DNA of 64,000 bases from Dehalococcoidia bacterium (GCA_965261195.1 CBDHDC010000002.1:35266-99265); one strand, 5' to 3'; shown: positions 18,779 through 42,622, numbered from the stretch's first letter. Numbers and translations: made by a program. The notes: generated by a model from the sequence alone, not told the origin.

Positions 18779-18800
18779 ATGAGGCAAGGGGAGGGTTGTC

Positions 18801-19292: not shown

Positions 19293-19314
19293 GCCAGGGG
19301 GAGGGCTTCAGAGC

Positions 19315-22808: not shown

Positions 22809-22844
22809 GGTGGGACGGGGGGTGTCTTCCGGTTCTGGGGATGG

Positions 22845-23334
22845 AGAGTGTTGGGTTTCAGGAATAATGCCCGCTATTTGCCCTCAGATTGTCTGTAGCG
22901 GCTTTTTTGGGGCAAGGATGATGAATGATCCACGTCGGGGGGATAAATCCGTTCAAGGGCCGTTCAGGGGGTAAAAACGGCGCAGCCTGAGCCCTAGTTG
23001 TTCTCGAATTCGGGTGGCGGCGGATCACTGCAGCCGGGTGGCAACTGTACGTCGTGTGGTTGCCGGAACAGGATCATGCCGTAGCCGTAGAGTGTTGGGT
23101 TTCAGGAATAATGCCCGCTATTTGCCCTCAGATTGTCCGTAGCGGCTTTTTTGGGGCAAGGATGATGAATGATCCACGTCGGGGGGATAAATCCGTTCAA
23201 GGGCCGTTCAGGGGGCAAAAACAGCGCAGCCTGAGCCCTAGTTGTTCTCGAATTCGGGTGGCGGCGGATCGCTGCAGCCGGGTGGCAACTGTACGTCGTG
23301 TGGTTGCCGGAACAGGATCATGCCGTAGCCGTAG
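22845..23334. repeat. 244-bp tandem duplication (two units)
   Basis: 22845-23088 and 23089-23332 differ at only about 4 positions. Each unit holds a terminator-like hairpin plus T6 (GCCCGCTATTTGCCCTCAGATTGTC.GTAGCGGCTTTTTT), a CGGGGGGATAAATCC motif, and the last ~97 nt of the 23238-23633 ORF. Confidence 0.9.
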
Positions 23335-23633
23335 GCGCGGTGGCGTCCGATGCCGTTGGTGATGAGCTGCTCGAAGCGCTCGGGGTCTTCGACGATGAAG
23401 TTGCCGCGGCAGGTGACGTCGGGGCCGAGAATGGGCGGCGTGCCGAACTTGCGAACGACGGGCACCCGGCGGTAGCTGATGATGCTGAACGTGTAAGGCT
23501 CTAGAGAGGCGCCTTTTTGCTGGTGAAAGTGTCTGTGAAGCCAGCCGCCGTAGGCTTGGTGGCGGTTGTGGTTGGTTTCGGGGATGGTTTCGGGAGGGGA
23601 TTTTGGTTTGGAACGGGTTGGTGTGTGAAACAT
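23238..23633 (-). CDS. small protein with a Cas6e (CasE)-like C-terminal domain; possible cas6e relic
   Basis: CRGNFIVEDPERFEQLITNGIGRHRAYGYGMILF aligns with the CasE C-termini FEGVLTINDAPALIDLVQQGIGPAKSMGCGLLSL (E. coli) and FEGRLEVVDPERALATLRRGVGPGKALGLGLLSV (T. thermophilus). The N-terminal ~45 aa are low complexity, and the protein is only 131 aa versus ~200 for CasE. Confidence 0.45.
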   Translation of the reverse strand: MFHTPTRSKPKSPPETIPETNHNRHQAYGGWLHRHFHQQKGASLEPYTFSIISYRRVPVVRKFGTPPILGPDVTCRGNFIVEDPERFEQLITNGIGRHRAYGYGMILFRQPHDVQLPPGCSDPPPPEFENN

Positions 23634-23788
23634 GCCTTATGTTGGCCACGAGCGGAGCGGTGTTCTTGGCGATGCGTAAGCGAAGTGAGTGGCCAAAAGC
23701 GAACAGGAATGGGACTCTGTCCCTTCTGTTCCTCCTGTTCGCCTCTGTTCGGGTGATTTTCGATCAGTGATAACAAGGGTTTCCGGCC

Positions 23789-23876
23789 GTCATGTTGTAG
23801 GGGTAGATCGGTCATGTTGTAGGGGTAGATCGGTCATGTTGTAGAGGTAGATCGGTCATGTTGTAGGGGTAGACCG
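23789..23876. repeat. four tandem 22-bp iterons (oriV-like)
   Basis: GTCATGTTGTAGGGGTAGATCG occurs four times head to tail, with one substitution each in units 3 and 4. The array starts 52 bp beyond the 3' end of the putative rep gene. Confidence 0.85.
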
Positions 23877-23927
23877 CTGGGCCTAGATAGTTTTCTACAG
23901 AGATTTCCACAGGGCAGCTTCAGCAGA

Positions 23928-25917: not shown

Positions 25918-26175
25918 CTATCCTGCTATCCGCTCTTGATACTCGCTCCACATGGCGATGAACAGGTCGGATTTCGAGCCTTTCTTGAATCCGAACCGCT
26001 CGCCTGCCTCTTTTGCGAAGTCGTCGAGGATGTGTTCAGGTACCGAGAACTCGATTTTTGCCTTCTTGGTCGGTTTTTCGCGCGGTGGTGTTTTCAGGTT
26101 CGAATTTGTAACGTCCGGCGTGGGCGGCGTGCCTTTACCGGTGCGTCTGGGTTTCAATTTTGCCACGTCAACCAT
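25918..26175 (-). CDS. ParG/RHH-like partition adaptor (85 aa)
   Basis: Small basic protein directly downstream of parA, overlapping it by 1 nt. The C-terminal IEFSVPEHILDDFAKEAGERFGFKKGSKSDLFIAMWSEY is RHH-like. Confidence 0.55.
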   Translation of the reverse strand: MVDVAKLKPRRTGKGTPPTPDVTNSNLKTPPREKPTKKAKIEFSVPEHILDDFAKEAGERFGFKKGSKSDLFIAMWSEYQERIAG

Positions 26176-26828
26176 TACGCCACCTCTCTTTCAGCGGCAG
26201 TCGCGACGGCATCAATAATGCTTTGCGCCATGGCGTCGGCTCGCTTGCGCAGTGTGGGAAATGAGGTTTCGGTGATGGCCTTTCCTTGATCCATGGCCGT
26301 CTTGAAGGCCGCACGGAATGGAATCTCGCCGTCCAGCACCGTGTATGGGGTTTGCCCAAGGTACTCCCGCGCACCGGCGATCTCTCGTGCTGAGTCCGAG
26401 GTGATGCAAAGGGCAAAGGCTACTTTGTTGGCCGGTATCCCCGCTTTCAGCAGATTGTTGGCGAGAAGCACGGAGGGCTGGAGATCGTCTAAGCCTTCGC
26501 TTGTGGGGATGATGACCATATCAGCAGCCCCACAGGCCGCTTGTGTTTCCACGGACGAATGCGGGGCGCCGTCGAAGATATAGAGGTCAAAGTTCTGGGC
26601 GTCCTGTAGGGCCGTGTCGACCGAGCGGAAGGCCTCGGCGCGTATCGGCGGCTCCAAGCCGTTTGCCGCCCTTCTCGCGGCCCAACTGACGCTCGTCGTC
26701 TGTTGTGTGTCTAGATCGGCGATTTTGGTCTGCAGTCCGCCTTTCGTGGCCTCAACGGCTACTATCCGTGCAAGCGTCGATTTCCCCACCCCGCCTTTCT
26801 GCGCGACCATGGCGATTTTGTAGGTCAT
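26175..26828 (-). CDS. parA: ParA/Soj-type partition ATPase
   Basis: MTYKIAMVAQKGGVGKSTLA carries the deviant Walker A. The likely start is the ATG at 26828; the ORF track starts at 26849. Confidence 0.9.
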   Translation of the reverse strand: MTYKIAMVAQKGGVGKSTLARIVAVEATKGGLQTKIADLDTQQTTSVSWAARRAANGLEPPIRAEAFRSVDTALQDAQNFDLYIFDGAPHSSVETQAACGAADMVIIPTSEGLDDLQPSVLLANNLLKAGIPANKVAFALCITSDSAREIAGAREYLGQTPYTVLDGEIPFRAAFKTAMDQGKAITETSFPTLRKRADAMAQSIIDAVATAAEREVA

Positions 26829-26846
26829 GGCATGTCTCCCTGCTGT

Positions 26847-26890
26847 CATGTTATCCTGCTAACTGGCTATTATGATAGCAGGATAACATG
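26847..26890. promoter_or_regulatory. palindromic operator / centromere-like site upstream of parA
   Basis: CATGTTATCCTGCTA-N14-TAGCAGGATAACATG is a perfect 15-bp inverted repeat. Related ATCCTGCTA/TAGCAGGA motifs occur at 26903-26915 and 25901-25932. Confidence 0.65.
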
Positions 26891-29214: not shown

Positions 29215-29392
29215 GCTCGACTTTGTACAATTTTGGTCCAGTCAGTGCGTATAACAGACCGCTTGTATCAAGCACTGCAGCGATGCCAAGGCATCGCTGA
29301 ACGTCGCCTGCTGCCTTGGCATACCAGGCGAGCCGGCGTACCGATAGGCCACCCCCCAGGTACAGACCGTGCCTCTTACGGACACCCAGCAG

Positions 29393-29918
29393 ATGACAGC
29401 AACCCTGATCGGCTACGCCCGTTGTTCCACGGACAAGCAAGACCTGACGGCACAGAGACAGGCACTCGCCGATCTCGGCGTCGCACCGGATCGCATCTAC
29501 ATGGACAAGGGTCTGGCCGGCACCAACCGCGCCCGGCCCGGCCTGGATCAAGCCATGGCAGCAGTGCGCAAGGGTGACACCCTGGTGGTGCCAAAGCTGG
29601 ACCGCTTGGCCAGATCGGTTCCCGATGCCCGGCACATTGCCGATCAGCTGCAGGCCAAGGGGGTGAAGCTCGCCCAGGGCAGTAATATCCATGACTCCAG
29701 CGACCCGATGGGCAAGATGTTCTTCAATATCTTGGCCACCTTTGCCGAGTTCGAGGCCGACCTCATTCGGATGCGCACGCGTGAAGGGATGGCCATCGCC
29801 CGTGCCAAGGGCAAGTTGCGGGGCAAACAGCCCAAGCTCTCCGAAAAGTAGCAACGGGAACTCTGCCGCATGCACGCCACCGGCGACTATTCTATCAGCG
29901 ACTTGGCCGAGGTCTTCG
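29393..29918 (+). pseudogene. serine recombinase (resolvase), copy 1: in-frame TAG and 3' truncation
   Basis: MTATLIGYARCSTDKQDL...KLDRLARS... has TAG at 29849-29851 where copy 2 has CAG. Homology to copy 2 (59132-59709) ends at ~29918. Confidence 0.8.
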
Positions 29919-30070: not shown

Positions 30071-30108
30071 TGGCGTCATCGCAAGGTTTGTATCCAGAAT
30101 TACTTTAA
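30071..30108 (+). repeat. 38-bp Tn3-family terminal inverted repeat, IRa
   Basis: GGCGTCATCGCAAGGTTTGTATCCAGAATTACTTTAAG has the same length and inner ...AC.TTAAG end as Tn3 (GGGGTCTGACGCTCAGTGGAACGAAAACTCACGTTAAG). Confidence 0.75.
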
Positions 30109-30212
30109 GGCCACATAAGGCTGTCTGGGGCAGGGTGACGTGTTTAACACACTGTATTAAAATATCAAGACAGGAATTGCAGAGTGAACTGACGCCGCCG
30201 GAGGACATCTTC

Positions 30213-30671
30213 ATGGGAAATACGCCGTGCACGAGTTTCAACCTGCCCGCCGAATTCGTGTCAAGGCTCGATGAACAAGTCGAAGCTCTGAACGTCAACC
30301 TTCCAATGAGCACAAACCGAACCGCTCTGATGCGAATGGCCTACTACAAGACGATCAGGGAGGATTCGGCAACACATGGCAAATTCAGGACTGCAATTGC
30401 AAAAATGCAGGCGGGCGACGTGCAGGGTGTCCCTTCCCAGATCGTATCGGTACGCCTTTTGACCGACATGCGGGACGGGCTGAATGCGCTTGCTGAAAGG
30501 TATGGCATCAGCGTGTCATGCGTCATGACGCTGATGTTGGAAATCTCGCATCAGCAAATCGGCATCAAGGAGGGCAAGACGATCATCGGCATGCCTGTGG
30601 AGGCGTGGAAATATCGACCGCTCCGCATTTCTGATAATGACGCGGCAAGGGATCACCGGGCGGGGTCATGA
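30213..30671 (+). CDS. putative tandem ribbon-helix-helix DNA-binding protein
   Basis: Internal ATG at 30213. TSFNLPAEFVSRLDEQVEAL and IVSVRLLTDMRDGLNALAERYGISVSCVMTLMLE look like two CopG/Arc-type RHH units. Confidence 0.5.
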   Translation: MGNTPCTSFNLPAEFVSRLDEQVEALNVNLPMSTNRTALMRMAYYKTIREDSATHGKFRTAIAKMQAGDVQGVPSQIVSVRLLTDMRDGLNALAERYGISVSCVMTLMLEISHQQIGIKEGKTIIGMPVEAWKYRPLRISDNDAARDHRAGS

Positions 30672-30874
30672 TGGGCCATGAATTGAACGCACGGAGCAGG
30701 TCGGATCGCGGTGGCGGCGTGGTTCGACGGCATCTGGGGACCGAAAGGAATGGCTGGAACACGGAAGGCGGAACAGTGATCCTGCCCGGCGAACCCGGTA
30801 TTGACTGTCTGTCACGGATCATGACGGAGTGTCGGACGGGTTTTCTGATCCGTTCCGTGGGGTTCCGTCCTGAT

Positions 30875-31345
30875 TCAGCCATGCCTGCTCTTCGCCTTGG
30901 CGGGAACACTCGTCTCGAATTCCCGTTCGGTTCCTCGCAGCCATCGCTCCAGGTCCAGCAGGGTTCCGGGTTCAGCCTCCTTGTGCAGTGCACATTCCCA
31001 GACGATCGCGACCCGCCAGCCAACCTCGAGCAGGCGGTGCCGATTGCGCCGGTCCCGTTCCGTGTTGGTGTTGAACTTGGCCTGCCAGAACTCCCTGCGG
31101 GTGGCCGGGGTGGTTGTGTACGGGCAGCCGGCATGCCGGTGCCAGAAGCACCCGTGAACGAAGCATGCCGTCTTGAATTGACGAAACACGAGATCAGGAG
31201 TGCCGGGGAGTTTCCGGTCATGCAGACGGTATCTCAGGCCGCGGGCATGAAGGGCCCGGCGAAGAGCGAGTTCGGGCTTTGTATTCCTGCCGCCGATTCC
31301 AGCCATCATGCGCGAACGGGTAGCCTGATTCACTATGTCCGGCAT
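30875..31345 (-). CDS. vsr: very-short-patch repair endonuclease Vsr
   Basis: The translation contains TKPELALRRALHARGLRYRLH...PGTPDLVF...ACFVHGCFWHRH...EFWQAKF..N..RD. Confidence 0.9.
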   Translation of the reverse strand: MPDIVNQATRSRMMAGIGGRNTKPELALRRALHARGLRYRLHDRKLPGTPDLVFRQFKTACFVHGCFWHRHAGCPYTTTPATRREFWQAKFNTNTERDRRNRHRLLEVGWRVAIVWECALHKEAEPGTLLDLERWLRGTEREFETSVPAKAKSRHG

Positions 31346-31560
31346 CGTCGATCCTGCGAGGTATTCAGGCGGTACAACCAGAAAAGGGTCTCACGGAAAG
31401 TCCCGTCTTGGTGCCGGCGCGCACGCGCGGACAACGGGAATCCTGTTTCCGGAGCCAGCCGTGGAGCGGTCGGGAAGCACGTTTTCCTGCGGTTTTCCGA
31501 TTCCGGGCAGTCGGCAGTACCGACGGTTTCCATGTCGTCTCGCCGTCGAGGCGGAAAGCC

Positions 31561-33237
31561 GTGAGACGGAAAATCGTGCCAATCGTGGACCTGTTTTCGG
31601 GTCCGGGCGGTCTCGGAGAGGGATTCTCCGCATATCGGAGCCCGGGTGACCGACGCAGATACCGCGCAGCCTTGTCCATCGAAAAGGATCCTTCTGCGTA
31701 TCGTACGCTGCGGCTGCGTGCCTTCCTGCGCAAGTTCAGGGCAGGCTTCCCTCCAGAATACTACGATTTTCTGAATGGCGTGATCCCGAAGGAGCCCGAC
31801 TGGGCGAAGCTTTATCCCAAGCACTGGACTGCTGCCTGCGACGAGACCCGGTGCCTGGAACTGGGGACGTCCTCTGCCAGTACCTTCCTGGAGCAGCGGA
31901 TCGCACGAATCCGGACAGAGCACGAGGGACGGACCGTGCTGCTCGGGGGCCCGCCGTGCCAGGTCTATTCCGTGGCGGGCAGATCCCGAAATTCCGGCAA
32001 GATCGGATACGATGCCGACGAGGACGATCGCCAGTTGCTCTACGAACCTTACGTGCAGGTGCTCTCTCAGCTTCAGCCGGCGATTGCCGTCATGGAGAAC
32101 GTCAAGGGGATGCTCTCCGCGCGGCGGAACGGAAGACTGATCTTTCCGGAAGTGATGCGTAAGCTCCGGCATGCGGGCAGCATCAATGCGTATCAGCTGT
32201 TTGCGCTTGCTCCCCCCTCGGGGATCTGTTCCTGGGACGAGGCATCGAAGCCGAGGGACTTCCTTGTGCATGCAGAGGAGCACAGCGTGCCGCAAGCCCG
32301 CCATCGCGTTTTCGTCATCTGTGTGCGACGCGATGTTGCTGAAGCGCTTCCGGAAGAATGTCTGCCGCGACTCGATCGACAGGATGGCACGGTTTCGGTT
32401 CGTGACATCATCAGTGCCATGCCGAAGCTTCGCAGTCGCCTCAGTCAGAATGACGATCCCGGCTCGTGGCAGGACGCCGTGCGATCGGTCTGCGAACTGA
32501 TCCTCGCGCATCGGCCGATGATGTCCCAGGATGAGGAAAGACGGTTCCGGATGGCTCTTGGCCGTGCCTTGCTCACTGCCAAGGGGGCCGCGCCGCCGTG
32601 GCGGGAAGCACGTGGCGGGCTTGCCTTGCCTTCCGGTTGTCCTGCAGACCTCCGCGACTGGATATCCGACGAGAAGATCGAGGTGCTGCCCAACAATGAG
32701 ACGAGAAGGCATATCCCCGCCGATCTCGCCCGCTACCTGTTCGCCGCGGCGTTCGTTCGCGCCTTCGGGCGATCTCCGAAGACCCCGGATTTTCCCGAGG
32801 CGCTGATGCCGGACCACGCGAACTGGAGCACGGGGATGTTCGACGACCGCTATCGGGTGCAGCTTCTCGATGGGCCGTCCACGACGGTCACGAGTCACCT
32901 CTCAAAGGACGGCCACTATTTCATTCATCCCGACCCGGCTCAGTGCCGGAGCTTTACCGTGCGGGAGGCGGCACGCCTTCAGACCTTTCCGGACAACTAC
33001 CTTTTCCACGGCAGTCGCACGCAGCAGTACATTCAGGTGGGCAATGCAGTCCCGCCTTTTCTCGCTTGGCAGATTGCCCGGGCTGTCTGGGGCATCATTG
33101 ACCATCATGATCATATCGCGGCACGTACGCGACCACGCGTTCGGCCCTCTCTGGGCAGACAGCCCGTCGTCGCATTGCACAGACCACTCGACCGCCAAAA
33201 TACCAAGGGCGACTTCTGCGCAACAGGGAAAGCCTGA
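31561..33237 (+). CDS. dcm: DNA (cytosine-5)-methyltransferase (GTG start inferred)
   Basis: Motif I is [15 protein letters not shown], motif IV is GGPPCQVYS, then MENVKGM, and motif X is QTFPDNYLF...QVGNAVPP. Confidence 0.9.
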
Positions 33238-33238
33238 C

Positions 33239-35494
33239 ATGGAGATGCGGAGAGAAGCGAATGCAAGAAACAGTTCAGATCGTCTAGACAAGAAGTATCT
33301 GAGGCCTGCATTCAGAATGGCCGTCCTCAATGGTGCTGTGGAATCGGTCCGTTTGCATCTTCGTGCTGGGGAAGATGTTAATGCGGTTGACGAAAAAGGC
33401 CGTTCCCCCTTGATGCTTGCCGCATCCAAAGGACGTGTCGATATTTGCGGTCTGCTGTTGGCCGAGGGAGCCGATCCTGCACTTAGAGACAATGGCGGGA
33501 ACGATGCCCTTATCTTGGCTCTTGGCCAAGGCCGAACTGAGATTGCAACACTTCTTTCCAATGCTTGTGCGGCAGTCGAAGGGCCATTGCAGCACAATGC
33601 CGGAAATGACGACGATCAGGCCCTCAGGCGATACCAGACTTCTTCTCACCCAGATCAAAATGACGGGATGGGGACTGCGAACGAGACGGTCCTTTGCGAT
33701 CAAGGTTTTTTCGCTGCTGGACATGGCATCCCAGAAGACAAAGCATTTGGAAAATGCCAAGTTCCGGGGTCCCGCTATTGGCGGGACACGAACGAACTGC
33801 TTGACCTCTCCGCTTGGGAGGAGGAAACCGACGGGCCTCCCCCGACGAATGACCTGTCATGCGCCAAGGAGGCGACAGACCTTCAAACTCGGATCTCCGA
33901 TCACACCCCGATCGACACGGACGAAGGTTGGGAAGAGGTCACGGTGGACCTTCCCGATCTGGATGACCTTTTACGCCGTCACATTCCGCTGAGTCCGCAG
34001 GATGAGCAATCGCTCCGGACACTGGTTCTTGAGGGATTAAGGGATAAACACATACGGAACGAAAGAATTATCTCTGCGCTTCCCGTGGAAACTGAGGATG
34101 ACGCATCCGTCGGAGAGGACCTAGGGGGTTGCCTGCGGCTGGTCCTTGGCGACCTTGGCGTCGTGGTCGATGATGACCCCTTCGCACTGGAAACCTTCAT
34201 CCATGCCGACGAGGATGAAGAAAGGTTTGGGGACCAAGTCAGCGAAGCGCTTGCGTTTCTCGGTCAGCTTTGGGCGAACCAGGTCAATCCTTTCGCTCTC
34301 TACTGCAAGGAGCTAGGGGTTGACCTTCTGACGCGGGAAGACGAAACAGCGCTAGGAATGGCCATGGAGGCGGGAAAAATTGATGTGCTGACGGGCTTGG
34401 CCAGGAGTCCGGCGACAAGATCAAGACTGCTTGCCGATGTGACAGGTGTACTGAGCGGTGACACTCCAGTGCGTAGCATATTCGCTGTGGGCAGGGGGGG
34501 CGAGAGCTCTGACAACGAGGCCAGGAGCGCCGAAGTCCAGAACGAGGATGATCAAGTAGACGGTGTGTTTACTTCCGAAGCGGGCAACCCATCGCTGCTT
34601 GAGGATATTTCGAGACCTTTGAAGATGATAATGAATTGTTGCCTGCAGGCTGAGCCGGATGTGGCCAAGCTTGCGGATCATCTTCTGGAGGCAGAGCCTG
34701 AACCAGGATATTTCATGGAACTAAGGCGGATTGCCGAACAGGATCCGCTGTGCGGAGATGCAAGGCAGAGGATCAAGTCAGGACTCGAAAAAGCTGAAAC
34801 CGCAAAAAAACGTCTTGTGGAAGCCAATCTCAGGCTTGTGATCTGGGTTGCAAGGAAGCACGGTGGCTTGCCCCTCATGGACAGGATACAGGAAGGCAAC
34901 ATAGGCCTTATAAGGGCTGCCGAGCGATTCGACTACAGGCGCGGCACAAAATTTTCCACTTTCGCTGTCTGGTGGATCCGCCAAGTGATCAATCGCGCAG
35001 TTGATGACCAAGCAAGAATTATCCGCCTCCCGGTGCATGTGCAGGAAAACTCTCGCAAGGTCGAAAGGGCTGAAGCACAGGTATATTCCGAAACTGGACG
35101 TGAGCGGGATATCCATCGAATCGCCAGTGTCACGCAATTACCTTTGGACCGGGTGGAGAGACTTCTGGATGTCCCGGACGAACCAATTCCGATGGAAGAC
35201 GCATGGGACAAGGTTGTGCGTCTCGCTGACGAAGCCATCTCAGCACCGGAAGAAATCCTGGCCATTTCTGAAATGCCAGCCTTTGTAAGAAGCTACTTGG
35301 ATTGTCTGGATGAAAGAGAGAAGGACATCATCTGCCGGAGGTTCGGCATGGGTTGCGATGAACAGACGCTTGAGGAGATCGGACAGTTCTATGACCTCAC
35401 GCGGGAACGCATCCGCCAGATTGAATCCAAGGCATTGGAAAAGCTCGCCCATCCCGGTCGCATCAATCAGTTGCGGGATCTCTGGCAATCATGA
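33239..35494 (+). CDS. ankyrin-repeat / sigma-70 (RpoD-like) fusion protein, 751 aa
   Basis: The N-terminus has ~4 ANK repeats ([51 protein letters not shown]). An acidic linker follows, then region 1.2-like [20 protein letters not shown]. Region 2 reads [61 protein letters not shown], and region 4 reads [25 protein letters not shown]. The ATG is 1 nt after the dcm stop. Confidence 0.85.
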
Positions 35495-37032
35495 TCACGC
35501 CTTCAAACACAACGTTACCGCCGGGATCCCGTTACGCCCCGCCGCGCGCCGCGGCCATGATCGAGGCTCTTCGCGGTATCGGCTATTCCACCGCTACTGC
35601 CCTTGCTGACATTATCGACAACAGCATTTCGGCAAGTGCCCGGTCCGTGGATCTCGTTTTTGCGTGGAATGACGATGGCAGTCATGTGGCGATTCTGGAT
35701 AACGGGACCGGCATGGACGCTGCTGAGCTCGACTCCGCAATGCGCCTTGGCGCACTCAGTCCGCTCGATCCGCGAGAGGCAGGTGATCTAGGACGTTTCG
35801 GCCTAGGTCTAAAGACGGCATCGTTCTCGCAATGTCGAAGGCTTACGGTCGCCAGCATCAAGGGTGGTTGCATGAATTGTCTTCGCTGGGATCTCGATCT
35901 CATTGCATCCAACCCGGACGACGACTGGCTTCTTCTTGAAGGGACGGCAAAGGGATCAGAGAGCCTGCTGAAACCCCTGCTCAGATCCGGAAGAGGGACA
36001 TTGGTCCTCTGGGAGCGCTTGGACAGGATTGTCACTTCCGGCTTCACGGAACAGGACTTCCTTGATCTGATAGACGCTGTGGAGCGGCATCTAGCCATGG
36101 TGTTTCACCGCTTTCTCAAGGGTGCCCATTCCAATCTGCGCCTTTCCATCAATGGGAAAGCTGTGGCGCCATGGGATCCGTTCCTCAGGGATCATCCGGC
36201 GACATGGTCTTCTTCCGTGGAGAAGATTCCCAGCCCGTCCGGTGCGCTGGAGGTGCAGTGCCATGTCCTGCCGCACAAGGACCACCTCACAGCTCGCCTG
36301 GAACAGTCCGCCGCCGGACCGCATGGCTGGACGGCACAGCAGGGTTTCCATGTCTACCGGAACCGTCGCCTTCTTTTGGCCGGAAGTTGGCTCGGACTCG
36401 GGCAGGGAAGACTATGGACCAAAGAGGAGGCCCATCGCCTTGCCCGGATACGGCTTGATATCCCGAATTCCGCTGACGCCGACTGGAAGATCGACATCCG
36501 CAAATCGACAGCAAGCCCACCTGTGAGGCTGAGGGAACAACTGACGCGACTGGCAGATGACACCCGTGAGCGGGCCCGAAGGGTGTTCGCCCATCGTGGG
36601 CAGCCGGTCTCTGTACATGCCAACCGTCCAGTGATACAGGCGTGGCGAGCGGAGCATTCGGCAAGCGGCATCCGGTATCGCATCCATCATGAGCATCCGG
36701 CGGTTCGAACGGTGCTCGACGAAGCTGGCGGTCTTGCTGCCAAGATCAAGGCGATGCTTCGGGTGATTGAGGAGACGGTTCCAGTGCAGCGGATCTGGCT
36801 CGATACGACAGAAGGGCGGGAGACGCCGCGCAATGCCTTCTCGGGGGAGCCTCCGTCGGAAGTTCGTGCGGTGCTCATGGTAATGTACCGAAATCTGGTC
36901 TTGTACAAGGGTGTCTCCCCGGACTTGGCGCGGGAACAACTGCTTCACACCGAACCGTTCGACAACTACCCAGACCTCGTTGCAACTCTTCCCGACAATC
37001 CGCAAGCAGGAGGAGACAGTGTCGGCAACTGA
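35491..37032 (+). CDS. GHKL (HATPase_c_3 / MORC-like) ATPase
   Basis: The translation contains [19 protein letters not shown]...ILDNGTGMD...[13 protein letters not shown]. The start overlaps the sigma-fusion stop (ATGA). Confidence 0.85.
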
Positions 37033-39826
37033 CTTGAGAATTATCAAGATCGTTCAGGAGCTGCTTTTCGATCAGGACGGCATGGTTGCGGTCACGCCAG
37101 CCCTGATCGCAGAAAAGATCGATTGTGCCCTCGCGCTGAATTCGAGGTGGCGAGATGAGCTGGATCGCCAAGCAGTAATGGATGAACTCATCCGCCGCTT
37201 CAGCCTGTGGATCGGCCAGGACGCCACGCTTCAGAGCGGTGAAGGACATAGGGATTGGCTGACCGCAGGGCGCAAGCAGGACTGGCGATATTGGCGGCGT
37301 TTTCGCGATTGGCTGGAGGGCCAGCTCGCAATCAGAGCCGTGGATGCCCTCGACCGTTCCACCGATTCCGTCCTCTCCCTGTTGGAGGACCCATCTCGCG
37401 AGGGCCCTTGGGACCGCCGTGGGCTTGTTGTCGGGCATGTGCAGTCGGGCAAGACGAGCCACTACAGTGGCCTCATCTGCAAGGCCGCGGATGCCGGCTA
37501 CAAGATCATCATCGTCCTCGCGGGACTGCACAACAACTTGCGCGCACAAACTCAGGTGCGCCTGGACGAGGCGTTTCTTGGTTTCAAGACCAGTGCCATC
37601 GATGGCGACCCCTTTGTAACCATAGGCGTGGGAAAATTCGATTCTGACCAAAGCATACGGCCGAACTATGCCACGAACCGCACAGAGAGGGGCGATTTCA
37701 GCACTCGAATCGCCCGCAGCCTCGGCATCACCCCGGAACAGCGCCCTTGGCTGTTTGTGGTCAAGAAGAACAAGACTGTTCTTGAACGCCTGCTTGGCTG
37801 GATACACAACCACGCGGCCGACACACACGACAGGGAGACCGGGCGGCCCATGGTCACCAACCTCCCGCTCCTTCTCATCGATGACGAGGCCGATCACGCA
37901 AGTGTGGATACCAGGGAGATGCTGCTCGACGAGAACAGCGAACCGGATGAGGAACACAAGCCTACAACGATCAACCGGCTTATCCGCAGCATCCTGTACA
38001 GTTTCTCGCGATCCGCATGTGTTGGCTATACCGCAACGCCTTTCGCGAATATCTTCATCCACGAACAAGGCCGCACGCGCGCGGAAGGCTCGGACCTTTT
38101 CCCCGAGGCGTTCATCATCAATCTGGCGGCGCCTTCCAACTATGTCGGTCCGGTGAAGGTATTTGGGAGTCGTGTTGAAAACGGACGCAGTGGCGGGCTA
38201 CCCCTGGTGCGTCAGGTGACGGATTTCCATGAATGGGTACCGACAGGGCATAAGAACGGCCACCAGCCCCTTTGCGAGGGAATGGACGAAATTCCTCCAT
38301 CCCTAAGCGAGGCCATCAACGCTTTTCTTCTTTCCTGCGCATTGCGGCGGTTGCGCGGCCAGGCAAGGGAACATTGTTCAATGCTTGTACACGTCACCCG
38401 CTTCACTTCGGTCCAGCGAACGGTTCACGCCCAAATTGGGGATCAGGTGCGCCGTCTGAACCAGCGGCTTGTCCGTCGCATCGGTCATGAGTCGATCCTT
38501 GCTGAACTGCGAGCGTTATGGGAGCGTGATTTTGTTGCCACCACTGCCTTCTTGGCCGACGAATCTGAAGATATCAGACGCTATCGGAACGTGCGGTGGG
38601 AGGAGGTCGAAGCGACCCTGTCGGAGGTCGTCGCCGACATCCAAGTACGGATGATCAACGGGACCGCCGGGGATGCCCTGGACTACGCCGACAATCAGGA
38701 AATAGGGCTGAAGGTGATCGCCGTTGGCGGCGACAAGCTTGCGCGCGGACTTACCCTCGAAGGATTGACCGTCAGCTATTTCCTGCGTGCTTCCAAGATG
38801 TACGACACCCTGATGCAGATGGGGCGCTGGTTCGGCTATCGCCCAGGGTACATCGATCTGTGTCGGCTCTATACCACTCAGGATTTAGTCGAATGGTTCG
38901 AGCATATTGCAGATGCCTCGGAGGAACTTCGCGAGGAATTCGATTTCATGGCAGCAAGCGGTGCAACGCCACGGGAATACGGTCTCAAGGTGCAGTCCCA
39001 TCCGACGCTCATGGTGACATCGAAGCTCAAGATGAGAACAGCCAGGGATCTTGAGTTGTCTTTCAGCGGCCAGCTTCTGGAAACTGTGACCTTCTACCGA
39101 GAGCCCAGCATTCTTCAGGGGAACCTTGATGCCGCGGGAAGGTTGCTTTTGTCGCTCGGCACGCCGCAATCTAATCCGAGGCGACGCGGCAACGCCTGGG
39201 AAGGAAGCCATCTGTGGGAGGGCGTGCCGGCCACCGATATCGTCACTTTTCTTGACGGCTATCGGAGCCACCCGGAGGCACACAAAGTCAACAGTGCCCT
39301 TCTCGCAGAGTTCATTCGGTCGCTTGCTTCGGAGAACGAGTTGACTCGATGGACGGTCGCTCTTATTGGTGCGAGTAGGGGCGAAGGGAGTATCTGCCCC
39401 CTTTCTGGTGGAATTGTGGTCAGAATGCTGATGCGCTCCGCGCATGGACGGCATCCCGACCGCTACTCGATCGGCCGTCTCATGTCACCCCGTGACGAGG
39501 CTATTGACCTGAATGAGGCTACGTGGATGGAAGCCCTGGACAAGACGATCGAGGCGTTCCATGCCGATCCCGGGAGGAGCAATTCCAGGGAAGAGCCTAC
39601 AGTGCCCAGCGGAAGGGCCATCAGGGATGTTCGCCCCAAGGCTCGTGGCGTCATGTTCCTTTATGTGCTCGATCCGACCTTGGCCGGTCCGGGTTCCGGC
39701 TTGTCGGAGCAATCGCCGCCGGTCTTGGGTTTCGCCCTCAGTTTCCCCGCGAGCAATTCAGGAATCCGCGTGAAATACAAAGTCAATAACATCCTCTGGG
39801 GACAGGAATATGGCGGCTCCGAATGA
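37019..39826 (+). CDS. Z1-domain protein (P-loop / helicase-like)
   Basis: GTG start after AGGAGGAG. Motifs are GHVQSGKTSHYSGLICKAADAGYKIIIVLAG, LLIDDEADHASV and LARGLTLEGLTVSYFLRASKMYDTLMQMGRWFGYRPGY. Confidence 0.85.
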   Translation: MSATDLRIIKIVQELLFDQDGMVAVTPALIAEKIDCALALNSRWRDELDRQAVMDELIRRFSLWIGQDATLQSGEGHRDWLTAGRKQDWRYWRRFRDWLEGQLAIRAVDALDRSTDSVLSLLEDPSREGPWDRRGLVVGHVQSGKTSHYSGLICKAADAGYKIIIVLAGLHNNLRAQTQVRLDEAFLGFKTSAIDGDPFVTIGVGKFDSDQSIRPNYATNRTERGDFSTRIARSLGITPEQRPWLFVVKKNKTVLERLLGWIHNHAADTHDRETGRPMVTNLPLLLIDDEADHASVDTREMLLDENSEPDEEHKPTTINRLIRSILYSFSRSACVGYTATPFANIFIHEQGRTRAEGSDLFPEAFIINLAAPSNYVGPVKVFGSRVENGRSGGLPLVRQVTDFHEWVPTGHKNGHQPLCEGMDEIPPSLSEAINAFLLSCALRRLRGQAREHCSMLVHVTRFTSVQRTVHAQIGDQVRRLNQRLVRRIGHESILAELRALWERDFVATTAFLADESEDIRRYRNVRWEEVEATLSEVVADIQVRMINGTAGDALDYADNQEIGLKVIAVGGDKLARGLTLEGLTVSYFLRASKMYDTLMQMGRWFGYRPGYIDLCRLYTTQDLVEWFEHIADASEELREEFDFMAASGATPREYGLKVQSHPTLMVTSKLKMRTARDLELSFSGQLLETVTFYREPSILQGNLDAAGRLLLSLGTPQSNPRRRGNAWEGSHLWEGVPATDIVTFLDGYRSHPEAHKVNSALLAEFIRSLASENELTRWTVALIGASRGEGSICPLSGGIVVRMLMRSAHGRHPDRYSIGRLMSPRDEAIDLNEATWMEALDKTIEAFHADPGRSNSREEPTVPSGRAIRDVRPKARGVMFLYVLDPTLAGPGSGLSEQSPPVLGFALSFPASNSGIRVKYKVNNILWGQEYGGSE

Positions 39827-40829
39827 CATGGACGGTCTTCGTGCCGCTTGGCGGGCGCTAGCCAGCAACCGGCATGGCGAAGGTTGGCGAACTATTCCGA
39901 TTACAGTCCGCGCCCCCTGCGCGCTCTTTGCCGGCAGACGGATGCCCGGTGGCGAGGAGGCCATGCTGATCGGATTCCGTACCATCCGCAATGTTCCGGA
40001 TTCCCATCTGCCCCAAGGCCGTGGGTTCCAGGTTTGCAGGCTCCAAGCCGACCCAACCGGCGACGGCCGTACCATGTTGGCGTTGACCCGGGCGTCAATC
40101 GGAAGCCCCGAGCTGTTCGCCATGATGGCCGAGGATATGGTCGACCTTTTGAACGGCTGCACGACATCGGAAGAAGAGGAGGTTTTCCAGCGTTTCCTCG
40201 CACGCATTCGCGCTTGGCAGGACTTCATGGACCGACGCAAGGAAGGGGTTCTTTCTGCAGAGGCTGAGCAGGGCCTGTTCGGGGAACTCGTTATGCTGGA
40301 GTGTATGATGGACACGGGTGTACCGGCGAGGGATATCCTGGATGCTTGGCAGGGGCCGCTGGGCGGTCTTCAGGATTTCATACTTGGCACCGGTGGTATC
40401 GAAGTGAAGACGACCCTTTCCGCTGTCGGATTTCTCGCGATGGTGTCTTCCCTTGGGCAACTAGACGAGGATCTGCGTCAGCCGATCTTCTTGGCCGCCG
40501 TCAGGCTCGCCCTTCATCCTTCCGGCACGACGCTCGTCGAAATGTCTGACGCCATAAGGACGAGGCTTGGCGACAATCAAGGTGCGCTTGAAATATTCGA
40601 GACCCGCCTGATGCAAGCCGGTCTTCTCCGTACGGCGGCCGGACGGTACACTCGTCGCTTCCTCCACGCCTCCAGCGCCATCCTGGCCTTGCAGGAGGAT
40701 TTTCCACGATTGACGCGCGCTAACGTCCATCCCGTGATCAGGGAGGCCTGGTACGAGATCGATCTCGATCTGGCTGGAGCGGAGGATATCGGCCTGCAAG
40801 GGGCGCTTGAATCTTTGGGGGCAATTTGA
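39810..40829 (+). CDS. PD-(D/E)XK-motif protein (DUF4420-like)
   Basis: LQDFILGTGGIEVKTT is a D...E.K nuclease-like core. The gene overlaps both neighbours. Confidence 0.7.
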   Translation: MAAPNDMDGLRAAWRALASNRHGEGWRTIPITVRAPCALFAGRRMPGGEEAMLIGFRTIRNVPDSHLPQGRGFQVCRLQADPTGDGRTMLALTRASIGSPELFAMMAEDMVDLLNGCTTSEEEEVFQRFLARIRAWQDFMDRRKEGVLSAEAEQGLFGELVMLECMMDTGVPARDILDAWQGPLGGLQDFILGTGGIEVKTTLSAVGFLAMVSSLGQLDEDLRQPIFLAAVRLALHPSGTTLVEMSDAIRTRLGDNQGALEIFETRLMQAGLLRTAAGRYTRRFLHASSAILALQEDFPRLTRANVHPVIREAWYEIDLDLAGAEDIGLQGALESLGAI

Positions 40830-42622
40830 TGGAGCTGGGGGAATTCCTATTGCAGACACGGGCGGAGGTGAAGGAGGAGATAGCCGACCGTCTCTCCGTT
40901 CCGGGCGGCGCCTACCCGTACGAGGAAACGGTCTTCACCGAGGTGATCATGGAACACATGACAGAGGTGGGAATGACCTTTGAACCGCAGGCATGCCATT
41001 ACTCGGCGACCGTCGGCAACGCCAAGCTACGTCTGAGTGGCTTGGCAGTCTCGGATGACGGCGACCAACTCGACCTCTGTGTAAGTCTCTATGAAGGTGT
41101 GGAGACGTTAACCCCCATTTCCGACACTGAAACCAAGAAGGCTGCCGAACAGTGCCTCCGTTTTCTGACCAGATGCGCCGAGGGGCGTCTTGCGTCGATG
41201 ATGGATCAGTCCAACGACGCTTACAGCGTTGCACACACCATACATGAGAGTTACCCCTCGCTCGATCAGATCCGCATCTTTGTCCTGACGGACAGACTGG
41301 CGAAGACGAAGAATTTCAAGACCCGAAACGTAAAGGGCAAGACGATCAAGCTGGAAGTCATGGACATCGAACGACTCTGGCGCCACTGGGCGGAAGGCAA
41401 GCCTCGAGACGAACTGGTGGTCAATTTCGAGAACGTGTCCGGCAACCCCTTGCCCTGCGTCTACATACCTGGTGAAGAGATGACGGACTACGATTATGCC
41501 CTCACCGCCATCCCCGGCGAGGCACTGCGTTTCGTCTACGAGAAATACGGCTCACGGTTGCTGGAAGCCAACGTCCGCTCTTTCCTCAGTGTAACCGGCA
41601 AGGTGAACCGGGGGATCCGGGACACGCTGAAGGAAAACCCCGAACAGTTCATGGCCTTCAACAACGGCATCGTTGTTGTCGCAGACGAAATTCATTTCGG
41701 CCGGACCGCCGATGGCGCCCCCAGCATCTCTTGGTTGAAGGGCATGCAGATTGTCAATGGCGGCCAGACGACGGCGTCCCTCTATTTCACCAAGAAGAGA
41801 AACCCGGAAATCGACCTGCGACGCGTCCGTATTCCTGCCAAGATCATTGTACTCCGCTCCCAAGATGTCGATGGAGAGGAGGGATTGATTTCCGACATCT
41901 CGAAATACGCCAACAGCCAGAACTCAGTGAAACTATCCGACCTGTCGGCGAACAAGCCCTTCCACGTCAAAGTTGAGCAGTTGTCTCTCACGACCTACTG
42001 TCCCGATGGAGTCAGCCGCTGGTTCTACGAGCGGTCGGCAGGAAGCTACAAGACCATGCTGGCGCGTGAGGGAACGACGCCCGCACGGCTCAGAAAGCTC
42101 AAGAATGACATCCCATCATCCCGAAAGATCACCAAGACAGACTTGGCGAAGTTCCTGAACGCTTGGGACTGCAAGCCTCAATTTGTCAGTTTCGGCGCAC
42201 AGAAGAATTTCGAACGATTCATGGAAAATGTCGGGGATAGTGAGCATCAGAGCGCGGCACCCCTCCCCGATCTGGCGGAATACAAGCAGATGATTGCAAG
42301 GGCGATCATTTTCAAGACAACTCACAAGCTGGTCAGACCGATGTTCCCCGCCTTCCAGGCCAATGTCGCCGCCTACACCGTGTCTGTGCTGTCCTCACGG
42401 ATCGGCAGCCGGCTTGATCTCGACAGAATCTGGCAGCAGCAGGCCATCTCCGCGCGGCTCGGAGAACAGGTCCATATCTGGGCGCGGGAGGTGAACGACC
42501 TGCTCTACGTCAGCGCCAACGGGCGGATGATTTCTGAATGGGCCAAGAAGGCTGAATGCTGGGAAACTGTGCTCAACAGAGATCTCTCCACGCCGCTCAC
42601 CGGTATCCCGGAAATGCGATGA
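40826..42622 (+). CDS. AIPR (abortive-infection phage-resistance) family protein
   Basis: The layout and blocks (FLSVTGKVNRGIRDTL...FNNGIVVVAD...VNGGQTT) fit the AIPR family. Confidence 0.8.
   Translation: MMELGEFLLQTRAEVKEEIADRLSVPGGAYPYEETVFTEVIMEHMTEVGMTFEPQACHYSATVGNAKLRLSGLAVSDDGDQLDLCVSLYEGVETLTPISDTETKKAAEQCLRFLTRCAEGRLASMMDQSNDAYSVAHTIHESYPSLDQIRIFVLTDRLAKTKNFKTRNVKGKTIKLEVMDIERLWRHWAEGKPRDELVVNFENVSGNPLPCVYIPGEEMTDYDYALTAIPGEALRFVYEKYGSRLLEANVRSFLSVTGKVNRGIRDTLKENPEQFMAFNNGIVVVADEIHFGRTADGAPSISWLKGMQIVNGGQTTASLYFTKKRNPEIDLRRVRIPAKIIVLRSQDVDGEEGLISDISKYANSQNSVKLSDLSANKPFHVKVEQLSLTTYCPDGVSRWFYERSAGSYKTMLAREGTTPARLRKLKNDIPSSRKITKTDLAKFLNAWDCKPQFVSFGAQKNFERFMENVGDSEHQSAAPLPDLAEYKQMIARAIIFKTTHKLVRPMFPAFQANVAAYTVSVLSSRIGSRLDLDRIWQQQAISARLGEQVHIWAREVNDLLYVSANGRMISEWAKKAECWETVLNRDLSTPLTGIPEMR

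Follow-up and report, generated by a model that had tools for sequence, protein, structure and literature searches.

A predicted divergent Mza anti-phage locus of a Dehalococcoidia bacterium, with an ankyrin-sigma-70 MzaA, a coupled dcm gene and a divergent vsr gene

Positions 30875-42622 of the window (the whole 64,000-nucleotide stretch of Dehalococcoidia bacterium DNA analysed here) almost certainly hold, judging from sequence, a divergent member of the Mza (MzaABCDE) system, whose ankyrin-sigma-70 protein would be MzaA and which is joined by a coupled upstream Dcm and a divergent Vsr. What is new concerns MzaA itself: the residues that we take to make sigma-70-type contacts are near-invariant, a module particular to this protein (ankyrin repeats, an acidic tryptophan motif and a helical domain) outlives the loss of sigma regions 2-4, and MzaA evolves faster than the other Mza components.

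Gene content and assignment to Mza

Besides a divergent vsr, the locus contains six plus-strand genes in tight coupling, namely dcm, the ankyrin-sigma-70 gene and the genes carrying HATPase_c_3, Z1, DUF4420 and AIPR domains, arranged as follows:

30875..31345, minus strand: vsr, very-short-patch repair endonuclease, 156 aa (Pfam Vsr 97 bits; TIGR00632 141.5 bits, cut-off 97.85; PADLOC Vsr)
31346..31560, no strand: intergenic region between vsr and dcm, presumed to hold divergent promoters
31561..33237, plus strand: dcm, C-5 cytosine DNA methyltransferase, 558 aa from GTG (Pfam DNA_methylase 130 bits; PADLOC DrmMII and type II MTase models)
33239..35494, plus strand: mzaA, ankyrin-sigma-70 fusion, 751 aa (NCBIfam NF041931 473 bits; PADLOC MzaA 228 bits, E=3.6e-68; Pfam Ank_2, Sigma70_r2, Sigma70_r4)
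35491..37032, plus strand: mzaB, GHKL (MORC/MutL-like) ATPase, 513 aa (NCBIfam MzaB 810 bits; PADLOC MzaB 674 bits; Pfam HATPase_c_3 107 bits)
37019..39826, plus strand: mzaC, Z1-domain protein, 935 aa (NCBIfam MzaC 1289 bits; PADLOC MzaC 1179 bits and Helicase_II; Pfam Z1 294 bits)
39810..40829, plus strand: mzaD, PD-(D/E)XK nuclease of the DUF4420 family, 339 aa (NCBIfam MzaD 351 bits; PADLOC MzaD; Pfam DUF4420 222 bits)
40826..42622, plus strand: mzaE, AIPR-family protein, 598 aa (TTG) or 597 aa (ATG 40829) (NCBIfam MzaE 1005 bits; PADLOC MzaE 784 bits; Pfam AIPR 318 bits, AIPR_N 161 bits)

The gene coordinates of the first-pass annotation were all borne out, as were the dcm TGA at 33235-33237, the ATG of the next gene at 33239 and, by the gene calls, overlaps of 4, 14, 17 and 4 nt at the later junctions; the mzaD/mzaE overlap is 4 nt from the TTG start at 40826 and 1 nt from the ATG at 40829, the public gene call. 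For dcm, the longest open reading frame would begin at 31408, an unlikely start given that the public gene call favours GTG 31561, which is probably the true one. Comparison with homologues favours the mzaA start at 33239 over the public call of 725 aa, which removes the N-terminus 'L.PAFRMA' conserved in the homologue alignment; the length of 751 aa is matched by one member, which falls in the same 90% identity cluster as the window MzaA.

By its sequence the ankyrin-sigma-70 gene is mzaA, with which Mza operons canonically begin. The PADLOC models for this system (PDLC02203-PDLC02207) match MzaA-E with E-values from 6e-52 down to 0, and the corresponding NCBIfam models (NF041931-NF041935) align end to end with the window proteins, NF041931 covering MzaA residues 21-749 at model positions 2-714 of 726. 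Both resources thus call the last five genes MzaA-E, and the view of the first-pass annotation that the sigma gene is foreign to the module was wrong. The five genes are co-directional and packed in the order A-B-C-D-E (33239-42622). MzaA is a sigma-70 family protein by NF041931, PADLOC and Pfam, and NCBIfam labels it the sigma-70 family sigma factor of the MZA system; MzaB is a GHKL protein, MzaC a Z1, MzaD a PD-(D/E)XK (DUF4420) and MzaE an AIPR protein by Pfam, PADLOC and NCBIfam. The mzaC translation carries a Walker A motif (GKT) in GHVQSGKT and a DEAD-like box in DDEADHAS, and the relatives of MzaB in the PDB, as found by sequence, are MORC2 GHKL domains only. All five NCBIfam scores lie below the equivalog cut-offs (A 473/800, B 810/850, C 1289/1500, D 351/420, E 1005/1050), which serve automatic naming and do not define the system biologically, so that the window proteins would go unnamed by NCBI rules; we read the shortfall as a sign of divergence between the locus and the enterobacterial reference.

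The first-pass annotation was right to see here a recurrent Dcm/Vsr/GHKL/Z1/PD-(D/E)XK/AIPR defence module, and right as well on the operon structure and on the domain calls, for which Pfam searches return Ank_2, Sigma70_r2, Sigma70_r4, HATPase_c_3, Z1, DUF4420 and AIPR. The discovery of Mza is credited to Gao et al. (2020, Science 369:1077) by later papers including PMC9523054, which describes the original system as validated. In the available literature phage resistance is shown for an E. coli Mza only, against T4; in vitro, E. coli MzaD cleaves the DNA of this phage, and growth arrest is absent in Mza-carrying E. coli on T4 infection (bioRxiv 10.1101/2022.06.16.496414). Mza is in this respect more than a comparative-genomics prediction. 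As far as the literature and the PDB show, the description of the module as mechanistically uncharacterised stands.

Gene order across species, and the Dcm-Vsr neighbourhood

MzaB alone served to choose Mza loci, from no fewer than 581 species genomes, and the position of the sigma gene was counted in the 72 species loci with at least 3 kb upstream of mzaB. A sigma C-terminal domain lies directly upstream of mzaB in 67 of these 72 independent loci, and tblastn finds the ankyrin part as well in 60 of the 67. As the loci were chosen without reference to sigma, this contradicts the earlier placing of the sigma gene outside the module set. The same synteny refutes a one-off insertion of the gene. 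A slight dip in GC content (0.55 over 33-36 kb against about 0.59 on either side) could have hinted at a passenger unrelated to the defence genes, a reading whose probability is practically negligible given this gene order, the translational coupling of mzaA on both sides in the window and the presence of the ankyrin-sigma architecture in 53 or more clusters at 90% identity. The core machine can evidently persist without MzaA, since mzaA is missing from three Pseudomonas and Stutzerimonas loci, in which mzaBCDE directly follows dcm.

Within about 9-10 kb, Dcm was found in 37 and Vsr in 45 of the 54 loci with wide flanks, usually downstream of mza; the upstream coupled position seen in the window is the rarer arrangement. 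In the window, the C-5 methyltransferase adjoins the Vsr endonuclease (Pfam, TIGR), and the dcm translation contains the motifs FSGPGG, PPCQ, ENV and GNAVP. E. coli Vsr repairs the T:G mismatches that result from deamination of 5-methylcytosine, which is the established relationship between Dcm and Vsr. The E. coli Mza locus NZ_CP126345.1 has no linked dcm or vsr, and self-protection by a linked Dcm therefore cannot be general.

Promoter scans did not find the shared -35/-10 motif that had been suggested: no sigma-70 consensus promoter is present in 31346..31560 (best matches 7/12 on the plus strand and 6/12 on the minus strand), a scan of 30100-33400 returned nothing within the vsr-dcm intergenic interval, and the DNA upstream of mzaA shows no enrichment of sigma-70 consensus promoters.

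Architecture, conservation and possible role of MzaA

The following parts were delineated within MzaA, all on the plus strand:

33296..33577, plus strand: three ankyrin repeats, residues 20-113 (AlphaFold pLDDT about 95, three helix pairs; Pfam Ank_2 residues 27-107, 53 bits)
33794..34273, plus strand: acidic motif and small helical domain, residues 186-345 (invariant W193, W231, P239)
34283..34387, plus strand: sigma region 1.2, residues 349-383 (aligns to E. coli RpoD 96-127; Pfam Sigma70_r1_2 in 22/50 family members)
34814..35017, plus strand: sigma region 2 (core binding, -10 recognition, melting), residues 526-593 (Pfam Sigma70_r2 60 bits)
35045..35188, plus strand: sigma region 3, residues 603-650 (Pfam Sigma70_r3 22.3 bits, cut-off 25.3)
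35297..35449, plus strand: sigma region 4 (-35 recognition), residues 687-737 (Pfam Sigma70_r4 60 bits)

The ankyrin repeats, previously put at about four, are indeed present and number three in the AlphaFold model, and the linker that follows (residues 114-345) is acidic as described, with 53 D/E against 17 K/R. W193, W231 and P239 are invariant in two independent MzaA alignments (A2 and A3), while L238 is invariant in A2 and at least 90% conserved in A3. Used as a query, residues 186-345 matched 379 representative clusters; the matches listed are to proteins some 700-800 aa long, the length of MzaA, and occupy the same position in them (about residues 100-350); on this evidence the module is specific to MzaA. 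A 329-aa form without sigma regions 2-4, present in two Vicinamibacterales genomes, keeps the module, and its gene still overlaps the start of mzaB by 4 nt.

Sigma regions 1.2, 2, 3 and 4, as had been claimed, are present and colinear in the manner of a primary-like sigma: Pfam confirms regions 2 and 4, region 3 scores just under its cut-off, and region 1.2 is identified by alignment to RpoD, being uncalled by Pfam in the window protein. Region 1.1 is a feature of group 1 sigma factors; it was detected by Pfam neither in the window MzaA, whose N-terminus consists of ankyrin repeats, nor among the ten Pfam families found in 50 MzaA proteins. Sigma70_r2 and Sigma70_r4 occur in all 50 of these proteins and Ank_2 in 47, and the E. 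coli protein annotated as MzaA by NCBI has Ank_2 too.

The sigma part is 43% identical to residues 343-610 of E. coli RpoD, and the top Foldseek matches of the MzaA model are E. coli sigma-70 in holoenzyme structures. Equivalents of RpoD D403, Q406 and E407, which we take to contact the beta-prime clamp helices in core binding, are retained in 46-49 of the 50 MzaA proteins, those of W433, W434, Q437 and R441 in 47-50, and those of R584, E585, R586, R588 and Q589 in all 50; W433, W434, Q437, R584, E585, R588 and Q589 are presumably DNA-contact or melting positions (-10, -35). Retention in 46-50 of 50 proteins is, with roles so assumed, the conservation expected of a primary-like sigma. Equivalents of H455 and E458 (MzaA 600 and 603, just upstream of the region 3 match) are found in 46/50 and 42/50 proteins. 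The window MzaA departs from the family in region 2.3/2.4, with T570 for Y425, F575 for Y430 and N585 for T440, all presumably -10-contact residues, and the equivalents of R596 and R599, which we assume to be activator contacts of region 4.2, are variable positions in the family. Taken together, the sigma part of MzaA appears functional.

We tentatively propose a mechanism in which MzaA is an adaptor between RNA polymerase and MzaBCDE; as a whole it seems to us possible, though short of probable. The analysis shows the identity of the genes, their synteny, the domain layout and the conserved residues; all contacts between proteins, and whatever part RNA polymerase plays, are our inference. The GHKL ATPase MzaB, the Z1 NTPase MzaC with its helicase-like motifs and the PD-(D/E)XK nuclease MzaD would form a restriction-like machine that cuts invading DNA; we assign MzaE no role in it. 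The linked Dcm, in loci that have it, would mark host DNA, and Vsr would mend the T:G mismatches left by deaminated 5-methylcytosine. MzaA would be a working primary-type sigma with ankyrin repeats in the N-terminal place of region 1.1; its C-terminal half may bind the RNA polymerase core and sigma-70-type promoter DNA, and its N-terminal module (ankyrin repeats, acidic tryptophan motif and helical domain) may contact MzaB-E, in which case MzaA would couple the nuclease machine to transcription initiation. One way to do so would be to bring this machine to the promoters of incoming DNA; another would be to signal in what state RNA polymerase is during infection.

MzaA is the fastest-evolving component of the system, the median identity to the window being 30-44% for its three parts vs 57-61% for MzaB, C and E, and in a metagenomic survey mzaA is one of the frequently mutated defence genes, its Sigma70 non-essential region being reported as under positive selection (PMC10924106). 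Such a pattern would suit a sigma-70 decoy or guard, which would mimic the surfaces of the host primary sigma and be bound by phage anti-sigma or sigma-appropriating proteins (e.g. AsiA-like region 4 binders), with MzaBCDE released or activated via the N-terminal module. Regions 2 and 4 indeed stay close to RpoD in a cell that already possesses an RpoD of its own, and retention of the module without the sigma part is expected if the module links to the effector. We nevertheless consider a decoy rather unlikely: the near-invariant equivalents of W433, W434, Q437, R584, E585, R588 and Q589 are more simply explained by real promoter binding, the presumed activator contacts of region 4.2 vary, and both the forms without sigma regions 2-4 and the loci without mzaA would be sensorless.

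MzaA might instead be a dedicated sigma, which only transcribes the mza operon, or an 'insurance' sigma, which sustains transcription of that operon once host sigma-70 has been put out of action by a phage. MzaA is complete as a sigma factor, with intact determinants, and its gene comes first in the operon in most loci. Its specificity residues are, however, of the housekeeping type, so that host sigma-70 should read any MzaA promoter, and no distinctive promoter was found in our scans; the conserved module of ankyrin repeats and tryptophan motif, its retention and coupling to mzaB after loss of sigma regions 2-4, and the fast evolution of MzaA would all be left unexplained, which makes this account fairly improbable. 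Self-regulation of the island had already been raised as an alternative by the first-pass annotation.

A sigma-70 that lacks region 1.1 can bind promoter DNA alone. With ankyrin repeats at the N-terminus and no Pfam match to region 1.1, MzaA could thus bind promoters without core polymerase, and its sigma fold might be only a scaffold or DNA-binding module of an Mza complex that never engages RNA polymerase. The equivalents of D403, Q406 and E407, kept in 46-49 of 50 proteins, would be needless without core binding, and we hold this reading to be very doubtful.

Comparison with known systems

MzaA resembles RpoD in its colinear regions 1.2, 2, 3 and 4 and in the retention of the presumed core, -10, extended -10 and -35 contacts, and differs from it in its three ankyrin repeats, its 230-residue acidic linker with a motif of its own and the lack of a Pfam region 1.1 match. 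All NCBIfam RpoD models score far under their cut-offs on the window MzaA, and mzaA lies within a mobile defence operon whereas E. coli rpoD adjoins dnaG.

The E. coli Mza locus NZ_CP126345.1 matches the window in its five genes, their order and their strand, with junction overlaps of 4, 4, 17 and 14 nt (4, 14, 17 and 4 or 1 nt in the window), and its MzaA shares the architecture of ankyrin repeats, acidic linker and sigma regions 2 and 4. The proteins are colinear over their full length, with identities of 29% (A), 59% (B), 55% (C), 35% (D) and 56% (E). The window has dcm coupled directly upstream of mzaA and a divergent vsr, whereas the E. coli mza island has neither.

Operons of GHKL (MORC, paraMORC) ATPases with helicase genes, Dcm, Vsr, predicted nucleases and AIPR have been described as restriction-modification-like (Iyer, Abhiman and Aravind 2008, PMC2292703). 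They share with the window the GHKL ATPase, NTPase, restriction-fold nuclease, cytosine methylase, Vsr and AIPR; the word 'sigma' is absent from that paper, whereas the window has a sigma gene.

Miller et al. (2022, PMC9523054) describe a 'Type II' candidate system whose base is a cytosine methylase together with Z1 and a PD-(D/E)XK protein; an AIPR protein is added to it and a MORC protein is associated with it. They remark on its likeness to mzaABCDE. Dcm, Z1, PD-(D/E)XK, AIPR and GHKL are thus common to this candidate and the window. According to the same paper, 'Type II' systems share only some 20% identity with MzaB-E and include mzaA in few cases only, whereas the window proteins are true Mza orthologues, B, C and E having 55-59% identity to E. 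coli, and mzaA is present.

Gene layout and identity of the locus

The locus at 30875-42622 comprises a divergent vsr gene, a dcm gene and five further genes, mzaA to mzaE, on the plus strand. The gene coordinates, the domains and the coupled operon, which had been read from the sequence alone in the first-pass annotation, are borne out by the ORF list and by Pfam.

Genes of the locus, with Pfam matches
30875-31345, minus strand, vsr: Vsr
31408-33237 (ORF; likely GTG start at 31561), plus strand, dcm: DNA_methylase
33239-35494, plus strand, mzaA, ankyrin-sigma-70 gene (751 aa): Ank_2 (53 bits), Sigma70_r2 (60), Sigma70_r4 (60), Sigma70_r3 (22.3; cut-off 25.3)
35491-37032, plus strand, mzaB, GHKL ATPase gene: HATPase_c_3
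37019-39826, plus strand, mzaC, Z1 gene: Z1
39810-40829, plus strand, mzaD, PD-(D/E)XK gene: DUF4420
40826-42622, plus strand, mzaE, AIPR gene: AIPR and AIPR_N

The dcm stop codon (33235-33237) is followed by an ATG at 33239. Overlaps at the subsequent junctions are 4, 14, 17 and 4 nt, though translation of mzaE from the ATG at 40829 would shorten the final one to 1 nt. In the public gene call, mzaA (725 aa, from 33317) loses the conserved N-terminal 'L.PAFRMA' of the homologues. The start at 33239 (751 aa), or the ATG at 33245, fits better than the public one; the 90% identity cluster to which the window MzaA belongs includes one 751-aa member.

PADLOC recognizes the five genes following dcm as MzaA (E-value 3.6e-68), MzaB (1.9e-203), MzaC (0), MzaD (6e-52) and MzaE (3.1e-236). 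The five proteins are also matched end to end by NCBIfam models NF041931-NF041935, the first of which is described as 'MZA anti-phage system associated sigma-70 family RNA polymerase sigma factor MzaA'. All five NCBIfam scores lie below the equivalog cut-offs (MzaA, 473 against 800; MzaB, 810 against 850; MzaC, 1289 against 1500; MzaD, 351 against 420; MzaE, 1005 against 1050), which makes the locus a new, divergent representative of an already named system, Mza.

Synteny and natural variants of mzaA

The sigma gene had initially been regarded as foreign to the Dcm-Vsr/GHKL/Z1/PD-(D/E)XK/AIPR module. We chose comparison loci through MzaB alone, the sigma gene playing no part in the selection. 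MzaB is strongly conserved, with 7885 clusters (90% identity) at E<=1e-20; an alignment search retrieved relatives in at least 581 species genomes from many phyla, of which the best 80 loci, with flanks of up to 10 kb, were scanned by tblastn with the window proteins. Seventy-two loci had 3 kb or more of upstream sequence; in 67 of them the sigma C-terminal domain lies directly 5' of mzaB, showing that the initial view was wrong. A one-off insertion of the sigma gene is rejected by this synteny, which leaves virtually no probability that mzaA is a passenger. The ankyrin part was also detected in 60 of these 67 loci, and among 50 extracted MzaA proteins Pfam identified Sigma70_r2 and Sigma70_r4 in all, Ank_2 in 47, region 3 in 29, region 1.2 in 22 and Sigma70_ner in 9. 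Ank_2 also exceeds the Pfam cut-off in an E. coli protein annotated as MzaA. The ankyrin-sigma fusion is the canonical form of MzaA; a separate MzaA search recovered this architecture in at least 53 clusters at 90% identity.

Across the 80 loci, median identity to the window is 61% for MzaB, 60% for MzaE, 57% for MzaC and 42% for MzaD, with values of 44%, 40% and 30% for the ankyrin, sigma and middle parts of MzaA, respectively. These figures agree with a survey that places mzaA among fast-changing defence genes (PMC10924106). Among the best 80 of the at least 581 genome loci, the nearest (73-74% MzaB identity) belong to Binatia and Deltaproteobacteria metagenome-assembled genomes. Only three MzaB loci were present in 2.9 million viral contigs. 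No plasmid match covered 80% or more of MzaA; the two longest matches start from residue 183, and the rest are mostly ordinary sigma genes.

In three Pseudomonas and Stutzerimonas loci (L035, 7829-11482; L039, 1349-4846; L063, 7961-11470) mzaA is absent, and vsr (minus strand) and dcm (plus strand) lie directly 5' of mzaB, the dcm ORF overlapping that of mzaB in L035. Such gene content shows that the core Mza machine can exist without the sigma protein. In two Vicinamibacterales genomes (L010 and L025) the ankyrin and middle parts were found but not the sigma part. In L010 (9027-10016) this is a 329-aa protein with the ankyrin repeats, the acidic tryptophan motif and the middle domain but none of sigma regions 2-4, and a 4-nt overlap with mzaB has been kept; the L025 equivalent lies at ~8980-9867. 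This short MzaA, a natural truncation, sets the two halves of the protein apart. In two other loci (L046 and L078) it is the ankyrin repeats that are missing.

Linkage to Dcm and Vsr varies in presence and position. Within ~9-10 kb, a window-like Dcm was detected in 37 and Vsr in 45 of 54 loci with wide flanks, both counts being lower bounds because a divergent methylase would escape the search; in 11 of the 54, Vsr is present and Dcm undetectable with the window query. In the commonest arrangement (17/54), mzaE is immediately followed by a co-directional vsr, beyond which lies a convergent dcm. The arrangement of the window, with divergent vsr, dcm and mzaA, is rarer (L009, L016 and L065), and the loci without mzaA share its vsr-dcm layout; L006 has dcm upstream and no detected vsr. 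Both genes are absent from enterobacterial mza loci. An association of GHKL ATPases with helicases, Dcm, Vsr and AIPR has been on record since 2008 (PMC2292703), and a core of Dcm, Z1 and PD-(D/E)XK with added AIPR, noted as Mza-like, since 2022 (PMC9523054). Together with the MzaA forms that lack sigma regions 2-4, the mzaA-less loci and the varied linkage and position of Dcm and Vsr provide ready-made natural deletion mutants for comparison.

The two halves of MzaA

The sigma part of the window MzaA is 43% identical to residues 343-610 of E. coli RpoD, and the best Foldseek matches of its AlphaFold model are E. coli sigma-70 in holoenzyme structures. Of the sigma regions initially assigned, Pfam calls regions 2 and 4, whereas region 3 stays under its cut-off and region 1.2 receives no call in the window protein, yet aligns with RpoD (MzaA residues 349-383 with RpoD 96-127). 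Region 1.1 has no Pfam match in the window MzaA or in the 50 MzaA proteins. We aligned these 50 proteins with RpoD and followed residues whose roles we take to be those listed below.

RpoD residues by presumed role, and retention of their equivalents in 50 MzaA proteins
Core binding: D403, Q406 and E407, kept in 49, 49 and 46
-10 recognition and melting: F427, T429, W433, W434, R436, Q437 and R441, kept in 47-50; Y430, kept in 45
Extended -10: H455 and E458, kept in 46 and 42
-35 recognition: R584, E585, R586, R588 and Q589, kept in all 50
Activator contacts: R596 and R599, variable

The window MzaA has T570, F575 and N585 at the equivalents of RpoD Y425, Y430 and T440. The retention of these residues is an argument that selection acts on genuine binding to core and promoters, the specificity being that of the housekeeping sigma factor; that MzaA is a pseudo-sigma scaffold, never binding polymerase, we consider very unlikely. 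A shared -35/-10 motif, for which the first-pass annotation had proposed a search, did not emerge. The region 30100-33400 contains one promoter-like site against 1.0 expected, with none between vsr and dcm, and in the 250 bp 5' of mzaA the highest-scoring sigma-70 consensus match averages 7.75/12 over 68 loci versus 7.44 in coding controls, which amounts to no signal.

The AlphaFold model (mean pLDDT 71) has three ankyrin repeats at residues 20-113 (pLDDT ~95), not the four or so counted in the first-pass annotation, followed by a disordered segment (114-190), a helical domain (250-345) and the sigma body. Residues 114-345 are acidic (53 D/E versus 17 K/R). W193, W231 and P239 are invariant in two independent alignments, and L238 shows no variation in one of these and at least 90% conservation in the second; the acidic stretch that carries them reads DLS.W.EE...PPP.D.....A..LQ..IS.H.PID.D..W.D...DLP, and the conserved helical domain lies C-terminal to it. 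Searching 1.84 billion representative proteins with residues 186-345 returned 379 clusters at E<=1e-3, 118 of them at E<=1e-10. In the best 150 matches listed, the aligned part almost always falls at about residues 100-350 of proteins of ~700-800 aa, and because it occupies the same position in proteins of MzaA length, this module appears to be specific to MzaA. Some matches, in proteins of ~300-350 aa, may represent variants that lack sigma regions 2-4, or else fragments. In the Mza literature we found no mention of the ankyrin repeats or the tryptophan motif, both of which are implicit in the full-length NCBIfam MzaA model.

We tentatively propose the following joint picture, possible though somewhat short of probable. 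MzaB, MzaC and MzaD would form an ATP-driven restriction-like machine, the linked Dcm would mark host DNA, Vsr would mend deamination damage at the methylated sites, and MzaA would bridge the nuclease machine and RNA polymerase. MzaA would work with core polymerase and promoters as a sigma factor through its C-terminal half, and would contact MzaB-E through the N-terminal one. The main argument for such a division of labour is that the N-terminal module outlives sigma regions 2-4 and stays coupled to mzaB. The same survival speaks against a purely self-regulatory sigma, and we regard an operon-specific or insurance sigma as rather unlikely. MzaA could be a two-part adaptor between innate immunity and transcription, with an active C-terminal sigma half that would load onto host RNA polymerase and sigma-70-type promoters and an N-terminal module of ankyrin repeats, acidic tryptophan motif and helical domain that would dock the MzaBCDE ATPase-nuclease machine, or else a sigma-70 decoy that detects phage anti-sigma factors, a pair of readings that we hold with less than even confidence; the decoy taken by itself seems improbable. 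As an adaptor, MzaA would bring restriction to transcription initiation complexes on incoming DNA, or let such complexes trigger it. Either reading, if true, would make a primary-type sigma factor the targeting or sensing subunit of a defence system, and to our knowledge no earlier defence system has one in such a role.

Why a restriction-like system possesses a near-complete copy of a housekeeping sigma factor found no explanation in the literature searched or the PDB. The question is now sharper and open to testing: the equivalents of the sigma determinants are strongly constrained, and the MzaA-specific module can persist without sigma regions 2-4. As a discovery the locus carries little weight, since PADLOC and NCBIfam already have names for Mza and its sigma protein, and NCBI annotates both routinely in E. 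coli genomes.

The surrounding island and known Mza systems

The window is a dense defence island, which also holds an upstream CRISPR-associated gene and genes for AbiEi, AbiEii, a Phd/YefM antitoxin, a PIN-domain protein, an HNH endonuclease, a DUF7663 protein and the following:

47020-51924, minus strand, complete Type ISP restriction-modification enzyme (Mrr_cat_2, ResIII, N6_Mtase, Type_ISP_C)
56191-57870, plus strand, AAA_21 ATPase
60268-62199, minus strand, UvrD-like helicase

The last two, whose genes are not adjacent, might be parts of a Gabija-like system. The 152-aa product of 30213-30671, labelled RHH in the first-pass annotation, has no Pfam or PADLOC match.

Positions 23317-43635 are 99.84% identical to a 303-kb ENA metagenome contig (L001). 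The identity ends at 43635/43636, just past the PIN toxin gene, beyond which the two are unrelated, with the HNH and DUF7663 genes in the window versus resolvase and dnaE in L001; in these closely related genomes, the island has undergone rearrangement or reassortment. Upstream of the mza locus, a resolvase gene (29369-29851) encodes 160 aa in the window versus 209 aa in L001; the two sequences differ by substitutions alone, which implies a premature stop. Another copy of the resolvase gene lies at 59110-59654 (93% identity over 548 bp).

A strong positive GC skew (0.2-0.3) extends over ~16 kb (8000-24000), where most long ORFs are on the minus strand. The ORFs scanned there gave no PADLOC match, and three large ones at 12351-16399 have no Pfam match; the ORF at 16432-17355 is integrase-like. 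A 22-bp unit repeated 3.9 times (23789-23873) is iteron-like and adjoins a gene for a 638-aa protein without Pfam match (23928-25844, minus strand) and a ParA-like ATPase gene (26175-26849, minus strand); the segment as a whole may serve in the maintenance of a plasmid or integrative element. Direct repeats of larger size are found at 22300-22534 and 22845-23334.

The mzaABCDE system is credited to Gao et al. 2020 by citing papers, one of which, PMC9523054, calls Mza validated and mzaA a sigma factor. Cloned E. coli mzaABCDE protects 10^3- to 10^4-fold against T4 with unmodified or hydroxymethylated cytosine and much more weakly against wild-type, glucosylated T4; the cells undergo no growth arrest on T4, and purified E. 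coli MzaD cuts T4 DNA in vitro (bioRxiv 10.1101/2022.06.16.496414). Our literature search found no mechanistic papers on Mza. None of the Mza proteins has a close relative in the PDB, which offers no match for MzaC, MzaD or MzaE, and for MzaB only the GHKL domain of MORC2. Of 5426 complete E. coli genomes, 55 carry mzaA-mzaE in the NCBI annotation. The one E. coli locus inspected, where successive genes overlap by 4, 4, 17 and 14 nt, is part of an integrase island close to tRNA genes and a tRNA-Leu and, unlike the window, has no dcm or vsr nearby. The window proteins are 29% (MzaA), 59% (MzaB), 55% (MzaC), 35% (MzaD) and 56% (MzaE) identical to their E. coli counterparts, and all five are colinear.
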